The notes under the pieces were generated by a model. The model worked only from the letters and a program-made list of their open reading frames with translations, was not told the origin of the DNA and made no database searches. Both the position numbers and the translations under genes were made by a program. DNA of 64,000 nucleotides, taken from Gammaproteobacteria bacterium. GTDB lineage: Bacteria > Pseudomonadota > Gammaproteobacteria > Eutrophobiales > Eutrophobiaceae. The stretch is from assembly GCA_965261775.1 (NCBI GenBank), contig OZ253477.1:933239-997238 (forward strand), read 5' to 3'. Below, piece after piece: positions 2,964 to 62,373 of this stretch; position 1 is the stretch's first letter; each line of letters starts with the position of its first letter.

Positions 2964-4046
2964 CTATTGTTTCGCGCCCAGTTGCTTTGCCCGATTCAGA
3001 CGTTTGCCGTAATCATCCGCCTGGTCTTCCCAGCCCTGACAGTGTTGCAGGATGATTTGCGTCAGCGCGTTAATATGATCTTCTCTGTCGTTCAGGGCGG
3101 GAATATAGGAAAAATATGCGCCGCCTGCCCGGAAAAAATTTTGTTCGTTTTGCAGTTTAATTTCTTCGAGCGTTTCAAGACAGTCAACGGCAAACCCCGG
3201 GCAGATCACTTGCACATGGCGGACACCGTTTTTGGCGAGTGCCGTCAGGGTTTTGTCCGTATAGGGTTTCAACCATTCGCGCGGACCAAAGCGGGACTGG
3301 AACGTGACTTGCCAGTCCGCGTCGGCCAGACCCAGTTTTTCTGAAACCAGCCGCGCTGTTTTATGGCATTCGCAATGGTAGGGGTCCCCGGCAAGAAAGT
3401 AATGCCTGGGGATGCCGTGAAAAGAGTACAGGAGCTTTTCCGGCTTTGGGGATTCCTGCCAGTGCTGTTCAATGCTGTTCGCCAAAGCGGCGATGTAATC
3501 GGGATGGTCATGGTAATGATTGATCATTCTTAATTCAGGGATACGCCGCCAGGTTTTCAGTTCGTCGGCGACGGCGTCAAAGGTCGAGGCGGTGGTGGTG
3601 GCGGAGTACTGCGGATAAAGCGGAAAAATCAAAACGCGGTTGGCGCCGGCCTGTCGAAGTTTTTTCAGCCCCGAGGCGATCGACGGGTTACCGTAACGCA
3701 TGGCTATCTCAACCACAAAGGGGGTATCGGTCAGTTTGTCCAATCGGGTCTGTACCGCGTCGACCTGTCTTATGCTGTGGTAAAGCAAGGGGGAGCCGCT
3801 GTCCGTCCAGACTTCCTGATAGGCTCTGGCCGAGCGGCGGGGCCGGGTACGGAGAATTATGCCGTGCAGCACAAACCACCAGATGAATTTTGGCACTTCA
3901 ATGATACGCGGGTCAGACAGGAATTCTCCCAGGTATTTTCTCAAGGCGGCCGGCGTCGGCATATCGGGCGTGCCGAGATTGCTGATCAGTACCCCCGTGC
4001 AACCTGTGTCGTCGTGTTTGTGGTCCGGGTCACCCTGATATTTCAT
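2964..4046 (-). CDS. hemH: ferrochelatase
   Basis: GVLISNLGTPDMPTPAALRKYLGEFLSDPRIIE is the N-terminal ferrochelatase signature. Confidence 0.9.
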   Translation of the reverse strand: MKYQGDPDHKHDDTGCTGVLISNLGTPDMPTPAALRKYLGEFLSDPRIIEVPKFIWWFVLHGIILRTRPRRSARAYQEVWTDSGSPLLYHSIRQVDAVQTRLDKLTDTPFVVEIAMRYGNPSIASGLKKLRQAGANRVLIFPLYPQYSATTTASTFDAVADELKTWRRIPELRMINHYHDHPDYIAALANSIEQHWQESPKPEKLLYSFHGIPRHYFLAGDPYHCECHKTARLVSEKLGLADADWQVTFQSRFGPREWLKPYTDKTLTALAKNGVRHVQVICPGFAVDCLETLEEIKLQNEQNFFRAGGAYFSYIPALNDREDHINALTQIILQHCQGWEDQADDYGKRLNRAKQLGAKQ

Positions 4047-4095
4047 AGGGGGTTCTTTTCAGCGGATGAGTGATGCGCGTGGACAGGGGTCGATG

Positions 4096-4980
4096 TCAGG
4101 GAAGACCCTTTTCCAAAGCGGCGATCCGTTCCTCCAGCGGCGGATGGGTCATGAAGAGGCGGTTGATCCCGCCGCGCTTGCCGGAGATGCCAAACGCCGC
4201 CATTTCGTCTGGCAAGGGGGCAGGGTCGCTGGCCTGTTGCAGACGACGCAGGGCCGAGATCATTTTTTCACGCCCGGCCAGATAGGCGCCGCCGCTGTCC
4301 GCTCTGAACTCGCGCCGCCGTGAAAACCACAAGACGATAATACTGGCGAGTATGGATAACACAATCTGGATAAGGATGCTCCCGATCCAGTAACCGGGGC
4401 CGTGACCGCGCTCTATTTTGAAGACGGTGCGGTCGATGAGGTGTCCGATGACGCGGGAGAAAAAGATCACGAAGGTGTTGACAACGCCCTGTATCAGAGT
4501 GAGTGTGACCATATCACCGTTGGCGATATGACTGACTTCATGCCCCAGCACCGCTTCCACCTCGCCCTGGTCCATGCTGTTTAACAAACCGCTGCTCACC
4601 GCCACCAGCGCCGCATTTTTATTCATGCCGGTCGCGAAAGCGTTGGGTTGGGGTGAATCGAATATACCCACTTCCGGCATGCCGATACCGGCTTCCCGCG
4701 CCTGCATTTCAACGGTTGAGACGAGCCATTGCTCTTGTTGGTTGTCTGGCGTTTCAATGAGTTTAACGCCCATGCTTTTTTTGGCTATCCATTTCGATAT
4801 GGCGAGCGAAATCAGTGAACCACCCATACCTAACACCGCTGCGAAGATTAACAGCCCGGTCAGGTTTAATCCGCCGCCCTGCCCTTCAAGCATGGCATCT
4901 ATGCCCAGCAGACGCATGCTGACGCTGAGTACCAGCAGTATGGCGATATTGGTGCCGAAAAAAAGGAATAAACGCAACAT
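4096..4980 (-). CDS. htpX: zinc metalloprotease HtpX (M48)
   Basis: [10 protein letters not shown] motif, N-terminal membrane helices, about 294 aa. Confidence 0.9.
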
Positions 4981-5055
4981 GGTTATTCAAACCTCCTGTG
5001 ATAAATAGTCAAACCGGTAACATTATAGCGAAATAGCTACAAAAAAGCTGGCGTG

Positions 5056-7542
5056 TTATGTTTTTTGCAACACCGTCGCGGGCGGGACGGAGAAGACCTT
5101 GCGGGTACTGAGTAAACCGGTCGTGATGATAATCACGCCGCAGACGAGCGGGGAGATAATCCAGACGCGGGGGTTGATGGCAACGTCTATTTCGAATACA
5201 AATTCGGCGAGGATGAGTTCTATCACCGAGGCGGCAAAAGCGGACAGCAGACCTGTCACCAGCCCCAGACAGGCAAATTCCATCGCCAGACCGAAGAGAA
5301 TCTGTTTTCGACTGGCGCCCAAAGCGCTCATCAGTGCGGATTCACGCAGGCGCTCGTCGTGTGTCGCCTGAAGCGCGGCAACGAAAACGGCCAGACCGGT
5401 CAGCAGGGTGAAGATAAACACAAATTCCACCGCCCGCACTACTCGGTCCATGATGCTCCTCACCTGTTGCAGAATGGCGTCCACATCAAAGACGGTGATG
5501 CCCGGGAATTGCCGAACCAGTTGCGTCAACAACGGACGTTCGGATTCCGGCATATAAAAACTGCTGATAAACGTGGTCGGGTGGTCGGCCAGCGCTTGCC
5601 TGTTGGCGACGACGAAAAAGTTGACATTGAACGAATCCCACTCTACCCGGCGCAGGTTGAGGACTTCCGCACTTAAATCATGGGCGCCGATGGCATAGCG
5701 CAGAATGTCGCCCTGTTTTATCCCCAGCGTTTCGGCGATCCCTTCTTCGACGGAAAAGTAATGAACGGCGGTTTGTTTGTCCCACCAGCGCCCGCTGATC
5801 AGACGATTGTCTGCCTGCATTTCATCGGCGCGGGACAGGTTGAATTCCCTCGCTACCAGTCGCTGTGCACGCGGATCGTTAAAATCCTCGGGATTGACCG
5901 CCTTACCGTTGATATGGGTCAGGCGTCCGCGCACCATGGGATAAAAGCGGATATATTGACTGATCGAGTCGGACAGAAAGGCGCCGACACCATCGATCTG
6001 GTCGGCCTGTATATTGATCAGAAAATAGTTTGGCGTCTCTGGCGGCAAACGATTTCGCCAGTTTTCCAGCAGATCGGTACGGATCAATGTCAATAACAAC
6101 ATGACGGTGATACCCATGCCGATACCAACGATCTGCGCTGTACTCCGGCTGGAACGGCGGATGACATTGGCCAGTCCGTAACGCGCCCGTAATGCCAGTT
6201 GCGGTTGCAGACGCTTTAATAAACCAATCATCAGTTTCGCGGAAAGCGTCAGCAAAAGTGCGGTCAGCAGTAACCCGACGAGGATATAGAGGGTGAGGCC
6301 GATATTGCCTGATCGCCACGGGGTCAGCAGGGCCAGGGCAATCGCCGCCATGCCATAGATCAGGTAACCGGCGGGAGAGCGGGGACCGAGGTCGCGCCGC
6401 AGAACGCGCAATGGCGATACTTGTCGAAGGCGCATTAACTGAGGCAGGGCAAAGGCCAGAACGGCGATCAGACCGGTCATGATGCCGGAGGCTATCGGGA
6501 CCAATGACGGCGGCGGCAGATCATTTTGCAGCATGCCGGTCATCAGTCTATTCAAACCTTCCTGGGCGATATAGCCAAAAATACAGCCCGCCAGGCTGCA
6601 TAACAGGCCCAGCGCAAGCAGTTGTGTCAGATAGAGCTGCGTGATCTGGCGCTGTTGTAAACCCAGACAACGCAGGATAGCGCAGTTATCGTAATGCCGG
6701 ACGGCGTAACGCCGGGCGGCCATGGCAATGGCAAGGCCGGCGAGGGCGACGCTGACCAGCGCCGCGAGGCCGAGAAACTGCTCGGCGCGTTCAAGTGCCG
6801 TTCTGATTTCCGGCCGCGCCTCCCTGACGCTTTGTACGCTTATGTCACTGTCGTCACCAGTATTGATGGCCTGCTGATATCGCCTGACGGCGTCGGGCTC
6901 GCCACCCAGCAGTAAGCGGTAGCGCACGCGACTGCCCGGCGCCAGCAGACCGCTTTCGGCAAGGTCGGCGCGGTTCATTAACAGGCGCGGGGCGATATTG
7001 AAAAGGTCGCCACCGCGGTCGGGTTCGTAAGTGATGATCCGGTCAATAACGGGCGTTAACGCGCCCAGCCCGATCATATCTCCCGGCCCGGCCGGCAGAC
7101 TTTGTAACAAACGACTGTCAACCCAGACGCTACCGGACGGCGGGACGGCGTTCGTTATGCGTTCTTCGCCGAACAGGGTATCGGTGATCTTGATATTCCC
7201 GCGGATGGGGTAGCGTTCGTCAACCGCCTTGACTTCTACCAGTTCAAAGCTGTCTGCTTTTGTGATAACGCTGCGAAAACTCTCGTTCAGCGACCAGATC
7301 AGTCCGGTCTCTTCCGCCCGCCTTATATATGCATCGTCAATTTTCCGGGACGATATCAGTACCAGATCGGCGGCGAGTAATTCTTTTGCCTGTAAGGCCG
7401 TTGCGCGCTGTACCCGGTCGGTAAAGAAATGCACGGAGGTGAGACAGGCCACCGCCAGCACGATGGAGACGCCGATCAGCCATAGTTCGCCCGCCTTCCA
7501 GTCGCGCTTTAAAGACAGCGCCGCGAATTTAACGATATTCAT
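5056..7542 (-). CDS. ybbP: ABC transporter permease, YbbP-like, with duplicated FtsX domains
   Basis: 828 aa with two FtsX-type transmembrane blocks. Its start overlaps the upstream ATPase gene by 4 bp. Confidence 0.8.
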   Translation of the reverse strand: MNIVKFAALSLKRDWKAGELWLIGVSIVLAVACLTSVHFFTDRVQRATALQAKELLAADLVLISSRKIDDAYIRRAEETGLIWSLNESFRSVITKADSFELVEVKAVDERYPIRGNIKITDTLFGEERITNAVPPSGSVWVDSRLLQSLPAGPGDMIGLGALTPVIDRIITYEPDRGGDLFNIAPRLLMNRADLAESGLLAPGSRVRYRLLLGGEPDAVRRYQQAINTGDDSDISVQSVREARPEIRTALERAEQFLGLAALVSVALAGLAIAMAARRYAVRHYDNCAILRCLGLQQRQITQLYLTQLLALGLLCSLAGCIFGYIAQEGLNRLMTGMLQNDLPPPSLVPIASGIMTGLIAVLAFALPQLMRLRQVSPLRVLRRDLGPRSPAGYLIYGMAAIALALLTPWRSGNIGLTLYILVGLLLTALLLTLSAKLMIGLLKRLQPQLALRARYGLANVIRRSSRSTAQIVGIGMGITVMLLLTLIRTDLLENWRNRLPPETPNYFLINIQADQIDGVGAFLSDSISQYIRFYPMVRGRLTHINGKAVNPEDFNDPRAQRLVAREFNLSRADEMQADNRLISGRWWDKQTAVHYFSVEEGIAETLGIKQGDILRYAIGAHDLSAEVLNLRRVEWDSFNVNFFVVANRQALADHPTTFISSFYMPESERPLLTQLVRQFPGITVFDVDAILQQVRSIMDRVVRAVEFVFIFTLLTGLAVFVAALQATHDERLRESALMSALGASRKQILFGLAMEFACLGLVTGLLSAFAASVIELILAEFVFEIDVAINPRVWIISPLVCGVIIITTGLLSTRKVFSVPPATVLQKT

Positions 7543-8925: not shown

Positions 8926-10572
8926 TCAGCCGCCATCGGGTTTTATCCGGTCATTGATTTGTCGCAGAATGTGTTGAGCGGATCCCGCGGCGCAATCAAA
9001 AACAGCACTATTATCTATCTTTGTAACCGGACCGTCGGCAACACAAAGACATATCAAGCCCGATTGATTAAGCGTCCGCAGCACGGTCGCCAGATTATTT
9101 CCGATCTCTTCCTGCCTGAGTACGCAGCAGACATGACCCATATCGAAAAGGAGGCGTTCGAGCTCATATGCAATGCGGGCGTTATCAGCGCCGGTCAGGA
9201 AAACGCTGAACCCCCGTTGGGCATAGCGTGCGATCCGTTCGGCGGCGCTGACGGAACGGAGATCGCCGCTATCGGCGGCGCCGATGATCATCCCCGCGCC
9301 GACAGTGATATTGCTTAAATGATCAATGATAATAAAGGCGCCCGTTTCTTTGCATTTGGCGTAAGGGTCAAAGAACACGGGGGCATTGGTCATGATCTCA
9401 CAACAGCCGATCTCGTTCAGCTTCAATTCGGCAACCTGTGAGCGGGCCAGCGTATTGACATCAATACCGTACCGAATATCCGCGATGCCGCCAGACACTG
9501 TTTTGGCGGCGTGCTTCAGATAATATTGCCGGCCCGGGCGCACAGGCGCATCAGTCATCCAGACGATATTGGCCTCAAAACGATTGCCCGTTTGTGGCAG
9601 ATCGTCCGGCGTCGCGATCACATCGCCGCGGCTGATATCGATTTCATCTTCAAGCGTCAGTGTGATCGCCATGGGCGTAAACGCTTCGGGCAATTCAGTT
9701 TCATGGAGAATAATGGATCGAACCGTGCTGCTTTTGCCGGACGGCAGTACGGTAATTTTATCGCCCTTGCGTATGACGCCGCTCGCAAGCGTACCGCAGT
9801 ATCCGCGAAAATCGGGGTCGGGACGGTTCACATATTGCACCGGGAAACGCATACTTTCAAAGTTCCGGTCGGAGGCGATCTCCACTTCTTCTAAAATGGT
9901 GATCAAGGGATGGCCTTCGTACCAGGGTGTTCTATCACCAGGGTGAACGACGTTGTCGCCTTTCAGGGCCGAGATGGGGATGAAACGCAAATCCAGGCGG
10001 CCCAGCCTTTCGGCGAAATCGAGATATTCCGCCTTGATGTCGTCATAGACTTTTTCGTCGTAATCCACCAGGTCCATCTTGTTGATGGCGACGATGATAT
10101 GTCTGATGCCTAACAAGGAAGAGATAATGCTGTGACGCCGGGTCTGAACCTGGACACCATGGCGGGCGTCAATCAGAATCACCGCCAGATCGCAGGTCGA
10201 CGCACCGGTGGCCATATTGCGCGTATATTGTTCGTGTCCGGGGGTGTCGGCGATAATGAATTTGCGCCTGGACGTTGAAAAATAACGGTAGGCGACATCT
10301 ATGGTGATCCCCTGTTCGCGTTCGGCCTGCAAACCGTCCACCAGCAGGGACAGGTCAATATCATCGCCGGTCGTACCGGACAGGGTGCTGTCCGCCCAGG
10401 CAGCGGCCAGCTGGTCTTCGTAGATCATCTTTGAATCATGCAACAGGCGGCCGATGAGTGTACTCTTCCCGTCATCCACACTGCCACATGTCAGCAGGCG
10501 CAACAGGCCCTTCTTTTCATGCTGCGCCAGATAGGCGTCAATATCGGTGCTGATAAGGTCGGATTGATGCAT
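8926..10572 (-). CDS. cysN: sulfate adenylyltransferase subunit 1 (GTPase CysN) with a roughly 75-100-aa C-terminal APS-kinase-like extension lacking a P-loop
   Basis: GTPase motifs [14 protein letters not shown] and NKMD. The C-terminus [20 protein letters not shown]... resembles the start of CysC but has no GxxGxGKST. Confidence 0.85.
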
Positions 10573-10576
10573 TTAT

Positions 10577-11485
10577 TCAGAAGTACCCTTCACGTTTCTT
10601 TGCCTCCATTGAACCCGCCTGGTCGTAATCAATAATCCGTCCCTGGCGTTCGGAGGTTCTGGTCAGCAGCATTTCCTGAATGATCCCGGGCAGTGTCGTG
10701 GCCTCCGACTCAACCGCGCCGGTCAGCGGGTAACAGCCGAGGGTGCGGAAACGTACCATTTTCTCTTCCACTTTCTCGTCACGCTTGAGTGGCATGCGAT
10801 CATCATCAACCATGATATAGACCCCGTCGCGTTTCACCACGGGACGCCTGGCGGCATAATACAGGGGGACAATCGGGATATTTTCAAGATGGATATATTG
10901 CCAGACATCCAGTTCTGTCCAGTTGGACAAGGGAAATACGCGGATGCTTTCGCCCTTGTCAATCCGGCCATTGTAGATGTTCCAGAGTTCCGGACGCTGA
11001 TTTTTCGGGTCCCAGCGGTGATGCCTGTCCCGGAAGGAGTAGATACGCTCTTTGGCACGGGATTTTTCTTCGTCCCGACGGGCGCCGCCAAAAGCAGCGT
11101 CAAACTGATATTTATCCAGCGCCTGTCTCAGGGCCCGGGTTTTCATGATGTCTGTATATTTTTTGCTGCCGACGTTAAATGGATTGATGCCTGCCTTGAC
11201 TCCTTCCTGATTGGTATGGATCAGCAGGTCCAGGCCGAGGTCGCGGGCTATCCGGTCGCGGAATTCAATCATCTCGCGGAATTTCCAGGTGGTGTCAATG
11301 TGCATGAGCGGAAACGGTGGTTTTCCCGGATAAAAGGCTTTCAACGCCAGCCGTAACATCACCGCCGAGTCCTTGCCGATGGAATAAAGCATAACAGGCA
11401 TTGTAAATTCAGCCGCGATCTCGCGAATAATGTAAATGCTTTCAGCTTCAAGCTGTTTTAAGTGTGTTAGCCTGTGTTCCACCAT
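10577..11485 (-). CDS. cysD: sulfate adenylyltransferase subunit 2
   Basis: PAPS-reductase-like fold: [15 protein letters not shown], 302 aa, immediately upstream of cysN. Confidence 0.9.
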
Positions 11486-11735
11486 ACGGAGTTCATTTCG
11501 TGTCTGTTACAACAATCTGTCTGATAAGACGGTTCAAGGGAGCGGGAGATTATACCCCTCAACCCCGAATATTGCATATATATTTCGATTATCCGAAGCT
11601 ACCATATGAAAATGCGGATTATTTAATCCGCCCGGTATTCTTTAGAAACAGCGCTGTCATCAACGGTATTGCAAACAATACCCGAACGAATAATCGCACC
11701 AGCGCGTTTCCCTCTCCCCACCTTCGTCATTCCCC

Positions 11736-11870
11736 CGCCCCTGCCCCTGCCCCTGCCCCTGCTTTTGCCCCTGCCCCTGCCCCTGCTTTCGCAGGGGTGA
11801 CGTTCTTTCGCAGGGGTGACGTTCTTTCGCAGGGGTTCTTCCTCAGGGGTGACGTTCTTGCGCCTGCCTG
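11736..11870. repeat. compound tandem repeat: (CCCCTG)n hexamer tract followed by 3-4 copies of a 19-mer CGCAGGGGTGACGTTCTTT; the whole block is self-complementary and flanked by a 13-15-bp inverted repeat (11725-11739 and 11881-11893)
   Basis: Read directly from the sequence. CAGGGG is the reverse complement of CCCCTG. The block lies in the divergent cysDN/groESL intergenic region. Confidence 0.85.
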
Positions 11871-12033
11871 GCGGCAGACAGGCGGGAATGACGGTTTTGG
11901 TGTAACAGTGGTTTGTAAAACAGGTTGTTTCGACCGACGACAATAAAAAATGAATGTGCGAGCTTGTATTCCTGGACACAATCCCCATCTGTATCTCTGC
12001 GTTATTTGCCGTTTACTGGTTATATTTGCCATT

Positions 12034-12040: not shown

Positions 12041-12215
12041 CAGTTCAGACTGTTATCAATGGGGTTTCCCCCCGACAAATGACTTTTTTATAAACTGTTG
12101 ACAGAAAAATTTTTTTCATTACGATACGATTAGCACTCACTTGATAAAAGTGCTGACAATTGTGAGTTTTCTGTAAATTTAATTTAAGCTTAGGAATTAA
12201 AGGAGGTTTGCTTCT

Positions 12216-12503
12216 ATGAATATCCGACCGTTACATGATCGCGTCATTGTGAAGCGCGTGGAGGAAGAAAAAACTTCTCCAGGCGGTATCGTCATCCCCG
12301 ATTCAGCAACTGAAAAGCCGCTTGAAGGCAAAGTGATCGCCGTGGGGAATGGCAAGTTACTCGATAATGGTGAACTCCGCCCGTTGGCCCTTAAAAAAGG
12401 CGACAAGGTGCTATTTGCCAAGTATTCAGGTACCGAGGTGAAGGTCCGCGGCGAAGAGTATCTCATCATGCGCGAAGACGATGTGATCGGCGTCATTGAG
12501 TAA
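12216..12503 (+). CDS. groES: co-chaperonin GroES
   Basis: [18 protein letters not shown]...GGIVIPDSA, 95 aa, with an AGGAGG Shine-Dalgarno. Confidence 0.95.
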
Positions 12504-61781: not shown

Positions 61782-61983
61782 TTGAAGCTGGTCCGTCCGT
61801 AAATTATGCAGACGACCTGCCCGTCACGTTGTGCAAAGGACGCGACGTGAGCAGTCATTCCCGCGAAAGCATGCCCTCGGGACGCGCATTATTGATGATC
61901 CATTTTTAATCATCCATTTCATTGGTTATAATGCATGTATCCCGTCCCACTCGCTCCGGGGGCGGTAAAACGGATAAACAGAC

Positions 61984-62373
61984 ATGTATGACGTTCCTGA
62001 ACAACTCAATTATACGCCAGACCATCTCTGGGTGGAGGATATCGGCGATGGCAAGTATCGCATCGGCATCACTGATTTCGCCCAGCATGAACTGGGTGAT
62101 ATCGTTTTTGTTGAAATGCCGGAATTAGGGCGCGAGTATACCCGCACGGATACCTCCGCAGTGATTGAATCGGTCAAGTCAGCAACGGATATTGCCTGTC
62201 CCTTGAGCGGCAAAGTCGTTGAGCGGAACGCTTTGCTGGAGGATTCACCGGAGATTATCAACAGTCAACCTTATACGGGGGGCTGGCTGTTTGTGATTGA
62301 GGCAGGGGAAAGCGCCGGGCAAACACAATTAATCGGTGCGGACGCCTACGCCGCGCTTACGAAAGGAGGTTGA
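61984..62373 (+). CDS. gcvH: glycine-cleavage H-protein-like lipoyl carrier (stand-alone)
   Basis: ESVKSATDI lipoyl-lysine motif. 129 aa. No gcvT or gcvP adjacent. Confidence 0.85.
   Translation: MYDVPEQLNYTPDHLWVEDIGDGKYRIGITDFAQHELGDIVFVEMPELGREYTRTDTSAVIESVKSATDIACPLSGKVVERNALLEDSPEIINSQPYTGGWLFVIEAGESAGQTQLIGADAYAALTKGG

Follow-up and report, generated by a model that had tools for sequence, protein, structure and literature searches.

A repeat block between the divergently oriented cysD and groES genes of an uncultured gammaproteobacterium (contig OZ253477.1), spanning 11725-11893 of the 64,000-nt stretch analysed here, is most probably a compound, nested and internally amplified copy of NTS/SRM hairpin repeats. 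We put the probability of this reading, under which the block is neutral or selfish DNA rather than a switch, at roughly 0.6. All positions are those of the 64,000-nt stretch, hereafter the window. An earlier note, made from the letters of the window, had described the block as a self-complementary CCCCTG minisatellite that might modulate either flanking promoter. Most of its description of the parts was borne out, and its view of them as a simple minisatellite was not: the hexamers proved to be 3' arms, and the accompanying 19-mers 5' half-sites, of a dispersed hairpin family.

The repeat class itself has been known since 2025. The Neisseria NTS, CGTCATTCCCGCGMAVGCGGGAATCYRG, includes dRS3 and has the consensus form CGTCATTCCCGC-GMAV-GCGGGAAT-CYRG (Chenal et al., Nat Commun 2025, PMC11893778). 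NTS and the broader Ssn-related motifs (SRM) are substrates of single-domain GIY-YIG nucleases of 94 aa (SsnA, cd10448), which bind and cut them as single-stranded DNA (ssDNA) only and on one strand only (PMC11893778). Cutting depends on three nucleotides 5' of the palindrome and binding on a C 3' of it, and the ssn gene is often flanked by repeats in a layout resembling that of an insertion sequence (IS; PMC11893778). Neither that paper, whose text lacks the words 'tandem' and 'nested', nor any other in the literature searched mentions three features described below: the CCCCTGC type of stem, arrays of heads spaced at 19 nt with abutting arms, and nesting.

Half-sites and arms of the repeat block

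The block comprises a CCCCTG array, 19-nt repeats and closing inverted arms, and its unit structure is more legible when the minus strand is read. In that direction the order is CGTCATTCCCGCC, 26 nt with a small hairpin, CGTCACCCCTGAGGAAGAA, CCCCTGCGAAAGAA and CGTCACCCCTGCGAAAGAA, followed by CGTCACCCCTGC-GAAA-GCAGGGG, (CAGGGG)2, CAAAAG, (CAGGGG)4 and CGGGGGAATGACG. Each 19-mer is a 5' half-site in which a CGTCA head is followed by the CCCCTGC 5' arm and a loop; the corresponding 3' arms are the hexamers, which abut one another. One complete hairpin stands mid-block, and an outer pair of arms encloses the whole in a nested arrangement. Four heads and seven CAGGGG arms were counted. The parts, and one related site elsewhere in the window, are as follows.

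11881-11893, minus strand: outer head and 5' arm CGTCATTCCCGCC, with stem type ATTCCCGC, exactly the Neisseria NTS stem
11861-11884, unstranded: small internal hairpin CGCCTG(T)CTGCC-GCC-AGGCAGGCG, overlapping the outer arm, -10.1 kcal/mol as ssDNA
11836-11854, minus strand: degenerate 19-nt head unit CGTCACCCCTGAGGAAGAA, aligned with the units of locus L035 (see below)
11822-11835, minus strand: head-less unit CCCCTGCGAAAGAA, the 19-nt unit minus its 5-nt CGTCA
11803-11821, minus strand: 19-nt head unit CGTCACCCCTGCGAAAGAA, with head, 5' arm and loop and without a 3' arm
11780-11802, minus strand: complete central hairpin CGTCA-CCCCTGC-GAAA-GCAGGGG, with a 7-bp stem and GAAA loop, followed by C
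11738-11785, minus strand: array of abutting 3' arms, CAGGGG three times, CAAAAG, CAGGGG four times, equal to the plus-strand CCCCTG array
11725-11739, plus strand: left outer arm CGTCATTCCCCCGCC, bearing a GTCA head; read on the minus strand, this is the outer 3' arm GGGGGAATGACG / CGGGGGAATGACG, pairing with 11881-11893
Right arm of the block: GGCGGGAATGACG
61853-61870, plus strand: orphan half-site AGTCATTCCCGCGAAAGC, an NTS head, 5' arm and loop without a 3' arm

Tandem Repeats Finder reports 9.2 copies of CCCCTG at 11732-11786 (85% matches), in keeping with the eight or so hexamers of the earlier note; the array holds seven perfect copies, one CCCCCG and two interruptions (CTTTTG, CTTTCG), and within it a perfect 24-nt super-unit is present twice. 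The 19-nt unit CTTTCGCAGGGGTGACGTT, previously put at three to four copies, is repeated 2.7 times at 100% identity (11786-11836), with a degenerate fourth copy at 11836-11854. That both the 19-nt and the 24-nt duplications are 100% identical suggests recent internal growth. The closing inverted repeat, CGTCATTCCC / GGGAATGACG, is present as proposed, yet shorter than the 13-15 bp once assigned to it: it is perfect over 10 bp, and an extension to 13 nt requires a 2-nt bulge, since CCCCCGCC in the left arm corresponds to CCCGCC in the complement of the right arm. Paired without gaps over 21 nt, the two arms are 76% complementary. No second copy of any array part was found elsewhere in the window. 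The many dispersed copies expected of such a family are likewise lacking within these 64 kb, where the half-site at 61853-61870, in the spacer preceding an open reading frame (ORF) at 61984-62373, is the sole other trace of the hairpin family.

The repetition and the folding both exceed chance. Allowing at most one mismatch, CCCCTGCCCCTG has six matches where 0.27 are expected, a count reached by none of 100 shuffles. The long self-complementary foldback that had been predicted is well supported: the plus strand folds as RNA at -94.5 kcal/mol (z of -6.1), the ssDNA folds have z values of -4.7 (plus strand) and -3.8 (minus strand), and no shuffle equals any of the three. As ssDNA, the minus strand folds into a ladder: its outer arms are paired, and within them lie four rungs of CCCCTG(C)/CAGGGG with 12-nt bulges on the 5' side. 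Many pairing registers compete, as the minimum-energy structure makes up a tiny share of the ensemble. The 3' arms outnumber the 5' arms, and many registers are therefore of nearly equal energy, favouring slipped mispairing and further length change; variation in length by slippage is plausible from the sequence.

Compositionally, the block (60-71% GC) stands out from its spacer (37-43% GC), and the C-rich then G-rich asymmetry noted earlier is evident in a GC skew of -0.46 at 11700-11799 and of +0.20 to +0.24 at 11800-11949. The minus strand carries a canonical G-quadruplex motif (four runs of at least three G, separated by 1-7 nt) at 11738-11759, GGGGCAGGGGCAGGGGCAGGGG, the only one in the window. 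Formation of a quadruplex there is possible, as is cruciform extrusion of the block under negative supercoiling from divergent transcription. On the scale of the whole window, GC skew changes sign near 20-24 kb; drawing the replication strand from it was abandoned as ambiguous at 64 kb.

Probable kinship with the NTS/SRM hairpins

The central hairpin has the oriented form that defines the class, a (C)GTCA head directly 5' of a palindrome of about 8 bp with a 3-5-nt loop. Its GAAA loop fits the NTS loop GMAV, its length is that of the Neisseria NTS, and its stem differs by three compensatory pair changes; it folds at -9.0 kcal/mol as ssDNA (11802-11780, minus strand). A C lies directly 3' of GCAGGGG, and a CAGGGG arm takes the place of the closing A-T pair and the CCAG tail. 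When the common metagenome form of this hairpin, TGTCACCCCTGCGAAAGCAGGGGTCCAG, was compared position by position with NTS, CGTCATTCCCGCGAAAGCGGGAATCCAG, both proved to be 28 nt long and to have in common the GTCA head, a GMAV-type loop and the TCCAG tail. The stem differences are T-A to C-G twice and C-G to T-A once, with pairing kept, and both sequences fold as 8-bp hairpins (-9.0 and -9.6 kcal/mol).

Such hairpins are widespread. The sequence GTCACCCCTGC-N4-GCAGGGG was found in at least 120 metagenome contigs and nine viral contigs. Among the matches listed, the common form is (T/C)GTCACCCCTGC-GAAA/GAAG/GCAG-GCAGGGG-TCCAG, with a non-random choice of loops (GAAA 49, GAAG 43, GCAG 17), and TCCAG, as in NTS, is the commonest sequence 3' of the stem (46 of about 135 seeds). 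Stems of GTCA-headed hairpins include ATTCCCGC, ATTCCTGC and ACCCCTGC. The metagenome contigs listed also hold co-resident GTCA-headed hairpins with the exact NTS stem ATTCCCGC (39), with ATTCCTGC (25) and with close variants; a CCAG tail follows 135 of the 267 hairpins on these contigs. Strict SRM matches number 42 on the same contigs (0.59 per 10 kb), versus none in the window and none in the relatives described below.

A GIY-YIG ORF adjoins the hairpin, within 50-200 nt, in three of these loci (numbered L105, L165 and L140 in our set). The ORFs of L105 and L165 match PF01541 at E values of 1e-15 to 1e-17 and encode about 94 aa, and that of L140 was recognised solely through tblastn similarity to these two (46-48% identity, E down to 7e-29). 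L165 has the layout hairpin, gene, inverted ATTCCCGC hairpin, and L140 a variant hairpin, the gene and three direct CCCCTGC hairpins. No GIY-YIG ORF was found in 575 kb comprising the other loci and the window. From these comparisons we take the CCCCTGC hairpin to be an NTS/SRM hairpin with a variant stem, which the published degenerate pattern misses.

In ten metagenome loci (L074, L079, L085, L089, L094, L099, L169, L172, L183 and L185), a CCCCTGC hairpin and an inverted ATTCC(C/T)GC hairpin form a longer unit resembling a miniature inverted-repeat transposable element (MITE), enclosed by the inverted repeat AGTATCTGTTGCGGAAA...TTTCCGCAACAGGAAC.

A MITE- or REP-like element moved by another enzyme, such as a RAYT or IS200-IS605 TnpA or an IS110/IS1111-type recombinase, would make the neighbouring GIY-YIG genes incidental. 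Such an element would account for the inverted ends of the block and for the many metagenome copies within longer inverted-repeat units, and dRS3 is itself a target of a phage recombinase (PMC11893778). We nevertheless think it improbable. In our sample, GIY-YIG is the only type of gene that directly adjoins CCCCTGC hairpins; no transposase adjoins the block, although no systematic transposase search of the window or the fetched loci was made; and the block ends, CCTT|CGTCA...TGACG|GTTT, show no visible target-site duplication. The foldback element that the earlier note entertained is thus recognisable in the mobile hairpin-repeat modules and in the inverted GTCA heads at both ends; its hallmark duplication is not visible, and a classical MITE would also be expected to have a second copy, of which the window has none.

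Several observations weigh against assigning the block to the NTS/SRM class. The published pattern, HGTCWY-N0-2-YYVSBRH-N0-5-WNVSBRG-N0-2-RNCYNB (PMC11893778), has no match in the window on either strand, and the canonical NTS, used as a positive control, does match. No part of the block fits because the CCCCTGC stem falls outside the pattern, which it misses even in its canonical TCCAG-tailed form. The central hairpin has no T-CCAG tail, the next CAGGGG arm standing in its place, and the outer pair terminates in GACG instead of CCAG. SsnA activity in Neisseria was abolished when the stem was given a different sequence of unchanged structure (PMC11893778). The nuclease gene was present on 3 of 120 metagenome loci, which were examined as contig fragments, and neither motif searches nor tblastn found a GIY-YIG gene in the window. 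Finally, the density of GTCA-headed hairpins is at background in the window (4 versus a null of 1.8) and in the relatives, so this genome may lack an active system. Class membership of the block is accordingly incomplete: the head-plus-hairpin feature is there, the published pattern is absent, and the tail is partly present.

The arrangement of the block, as well as its units, recurs elsewhere. At least two heads precede a single full hairpin in 14 other loci, and 12 of these have the same 19-nt distance from head to head as the window copy. In eight loci (L075, L082, L109, L137, L160, L168, L187 and L188) we found the nested form GTCATTCC(C/T)GC-loop-GAAT-GTCACCCCTGC-loop-GCAGGGG-C(A/G)GGAAT-CCAG, whose 3' part can be written C(A/G)GGAATCCAG. 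This form, an ATTCC-type outer hairpin with a CCCCTGC inner hairpin and abutting 3' arms, is the plan of the window copy in miniature; relative to it, the internal hairpin at 11861-11884 is additional material. L035, from a Planctomycetota metagenome-assembled genome (MAG), has four heads at a 19-nt period, a full hairpin and two CAGGGG arms, and aligns unit for unit with the minus strand of the window (78% identity over 91 nt). In L023, from a Myxococcota MAG, arrays of three heads occur with both stem types, and there the period is 21 nt. About 8% of loci in the unbiased metagenome sample are two-head forms and none there has three or more heads, which makes the window copy an extreme case.

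Hexamer growth of the CCCCTGC stem also appears to be recurrent, as in L004, L057 and several Polyangiales loci CCCCTG/CAGGGG hexamers extend both arms of the stem, which follows a GTCA head. A scan of a genome collection with CCCCTGCCCCTG..CAGGGG..CAGGGG returned 62 matches, mostly unrelated GC-rich sequence or other repeat families; L023, L035, L004/L057 and a few hexamer-stem hairpins alone were informative. Thermoanaerobaculia MAGs carry a separate multi-copy GC-rich repeat, GGGCGGGGGCGCCCCCTGCCCCTGGAGGGGCAGGGGGACGGGGGGACAGGGGTGGA..., at many intergenic sites and without a GTCA head (L001, L007, L008, L014, L016, L020 and about 20 more). In L023 (JBCCEG010000028.1), a mosaic of hairpin modules of about 80 aa lies in frame within a 1107-aa valS-like ORF at 3151-6474 (..CHPCIPSCHPCVSSCHPCESRGPEMDSRFRGNDKMEGGNDKVEGGND..); the same ORF holds two 'CRDAINRVS' peptides, which may stem from a different repeat.

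These comparisons bear on the idea that the block is a local structural element unrelated to NTS/SRM, a cruciform, G-quadruplex or i-motif serving as a supercoiling sink or replication obstacle. The strong fold z-scores, the presence of the only canonical quadruplex motif in 64 kb and the location between divergent units speak for it. A local origin leaves unexplained the GTCA heads, the NTS-type outer arm and the GAAA loop, as well as the 19-nt spacing common to 12 loci of other phyla and the 78% identity with L035, and we regard it as unlikely. A structural side-effect on top of a family origin is possible.

Among known systems, the NTS/SRM repeats and their Ssn nucleases are the closest match in the GTCA head directly before an 8-bp palindrome, the G(A/C)A(A/C/G) loop, the strand-specific orientation, the exact NTS stem ATTCCCGC of the outer arm, the occurrence of the hairpin type beside small GIY-YIG genes in other contigs, and the wide spread across phyla. 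In contrast to them, the block has an inner CCCCTGC/GCAGGGG stem outside the SRM pattern, lacks the T-CCAG tail, has 5' half-sites amplified at a 19-nt and 3' arms at a 6-nt period with one hairpin inside another, and is accompanied in 64 kb by neither an ssn gene nor a high copy number. Neisseria dRS3 and NIME elements have the same ATTCCC...GGGAAT arms and are likewise intergenic mosaics of repeat units between inverted arms. However, dRS3 is ATTCCC-N8-GGGAAT (20 bp), whereas the arms of the block are about 140 nt apart, its internal units differ, and its host is a gammaproteobacterium without the Neisseria DNA uptake sequence (DUS). An origin in Neisseriaceae was dropped, as Neisseria DUS variants and the Haemophilus uptake signal sequence are absent; window GC is 50.5%.

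REP/BIME elements and their RAYTs resemble the block in being short extragenic palindromes that cluster as mosaics and have an orientation-defining 5' tetranucleotide, and in both classes ssDNA hairpins are recognised by a dedicated small enzyme, a nuclease for NTS/SRM and a transposase for REP. They differ in sequence and in enzyme family (Y1 HUH versus GIY-YIG), and no RAYT was seen near the block. Rickettsia palindromic elements are, like the repeats of the block, mobile palindromic repeats found in many contexts, and they can lie in frame, as does the related mosaic in the valS-like ORF of L023; the window copy differs in being intergenic and far more internally repetitive. We also discarded an iteron-like origin, which three to four direct 19-bp repeats might suggest (no rep gene is present, and other phyla share these units, which are halves of hairpins), and a CRISPR-like array (there are no spacers). 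A blastn search against plasmids and phages gave no match.

The cysD-groES spacer and its promoters

The position of the block between divergent genes is as first described. On one side are cysD (10577-11485) and a cysN-like gene, both on the minus strand, and on the other groES (12216-12503) and groEL, both on the plus strand, followed by rho. The cysN-like ORF (8926-10572, minus strand; 548 aa, with a 545-aa version in relatives) combines a CysN GTPase with a C-terminal extension; of the kinase part of the bifunctional CysNC profile, this extension matches the beginning only. CysD homologues with 87-90% identity were found in gammaproteobacterial MAGs, and the contigs of these relatives keep the order rho, two genes, groEL, groES, then cysD and cysN in divergent orientation. 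Their groES-cysD spacers are about 294 bp long, versus 730 bp in the window, and hold no trace of the block despite conserved synteny. Only two parts of the window spacer align with them, a groES-proximal block, which carries a sigma-70-like promoter and a CIRCE operator, and a cysD-proximal block ending in TATAAT.

12098-12125, plus strand: sigma-70-like promoter TTGACA-16-TACGAT upstream of groES, conserved in relatives L063-L068
12130-12156, plus strand: CIRCE-like operator TTAGCACTC-N9-AAGTGCTGA, 3' of the sigma-70-like promoter and also conserved in L063-L068
11540-11600, minus strand: cysD-proximal block TTCGGAT..TATGCAATATTCGGGG..TATAATCTC, with a -10 at 11549-11554, kept in the closest relative, L069

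Conservation of the CIRCE block suggests HrcA/CIRCE control of groESL in this gammaproteobacterial lineage, and the cysD-proximal block is probably the cysD promoter with a regulator site. Neither is disturbed by the repeat element. As the element is absent from the relatives, it is a lineage-specific insertion or expansion and not a conserved regulator; judged by these alignments, it appears to have arisen or arrived in this lineage only. A sigma-32-like match, CTTGTAT-N13-CCCCATCT, lies between the repeat block and the groES promoter (11963-11990, plus strand), in a part of the spacer that does not align.

Control of the two promoters by the block, as the earlier note proposed, finds little to sustain it. 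In its fullest form this reading holds that the block is a phase-variable simple-sequence tract whose slippage alters the spacing or the structure of the region between the two divergent promoters and tunes that of cysD, that of groES or both. Like the simple sequence repeats of contingency loci, it has perfect short tandem units open to slipped-strand mispairing, and it lies in a divergent promoter region. However, some 170 nt separate it from the conserved -10 of cysD and some 205 nt from the -35 of groES (12098), and it lies within neither a -35/-10 spacer nor a conserved reading frame. Relatives that lack the block keep both promoter-proximal blocks, CIRCE included. Unlike the tracts of contingency loci, it is unconserved, and its units are half-sites of a dispersed hairpin family. 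We consider phase variation of this kind very unlikely.

A functional RNA element, be it a minus-strand non-coding RNA, an insulator or a terminator, has the slimmest chance of the explanations we weighed. A weak promoter-like site (TTGATA-17-AAGAAT, 12059-12031) and a terminator-like hairpin with a T-run (GCGGATTAAATAATCCGC, 11631-11614), both on the minus strand, bracket the block, so that a transcript of about 400 nt between them is conceivable from the sequence, and the RNA fold is very stable. The matches are at consensus level, yet that of the promoter is 9/12 and such sites occur in the region at the rate expected by chance (2 versus 1.4 expected). Rfam gave no match in the spacer at a permissive E-value and none in the whole window at gathering thresholds, and the relatives show no conservation. 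A coding role was also rejected: a 121-aa ORF across the block has no homologue at E <= 1e-3 among 5.8 billion proteins.

Origin of the block and its significance

Taken as an amplified NTS/SRM copy, the block would descend from a nested ATTCCCGC/CCCCTGC double hairpin of the Ssn-associated class that entered, or grew within, the cysD-groES spacer outside both core promoters. Its half-sites may then have multiplied by slipped or hairpin-mediated mispairing, or by Ssn-linked nicking and repair. As ssDNA it would adopt the ladder fold, each CCCCTG 5' arm pairing with one CAGGGG arm. Wherever the minus strand became single-stranded, as lagging-strand template or as transforming or conjugative DNA, it could offer up to four GTCA-headed sites to a cognate Ssn, if one is encoded. 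It would have no dedicated role in the control of cysD or groES. Our preferred view is of an orphan relic, selfish or neutral, whose structure is still unstable, since the window has no ssn gene, no strict SRM, one orphan half-site and a hairpin density at the null level.

The fixed-spacing ladder rule was seen in Gammaproteobacteria, Planctomycetota, Myxococcota and many metagenome contigs, and the window copy, with four heads and seven arms, is the most expanded example among the loci compared. It is tempting, if speculative, to see in this layout the footprint of a specific amplification mechanism of Ssn-type repeats and not random slippage; we think this rather unlikely. A candidate would be a process that nicks the DNA again and again, a few nucleotides upstream of the head, and repairs it by fold-back or template switching. 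Were it true, how these repeats multiply and nest would become directly testable.

For this spacer, the regulatory account of a slippery minisatellite tuning chaperonin or sulfate-assimilation genes gives way to the better supported one of a stray, amplified repeat copy. For its host, the block is probably a hotspot of slippage during replication and of cruciform or G-quadruplex formation, beside two essential operons. For the family, the spacing of head half-sites at 19 nt and the nesting of hairpins recur across phyla, and hairpin mosaics can sit in frame within essential genes, as in the valS of L023. The common CCCCTGC hairpin, which flanks GIY-YIG genes, evades the SRM pattern, and SRM counts may therefore be underestimates.

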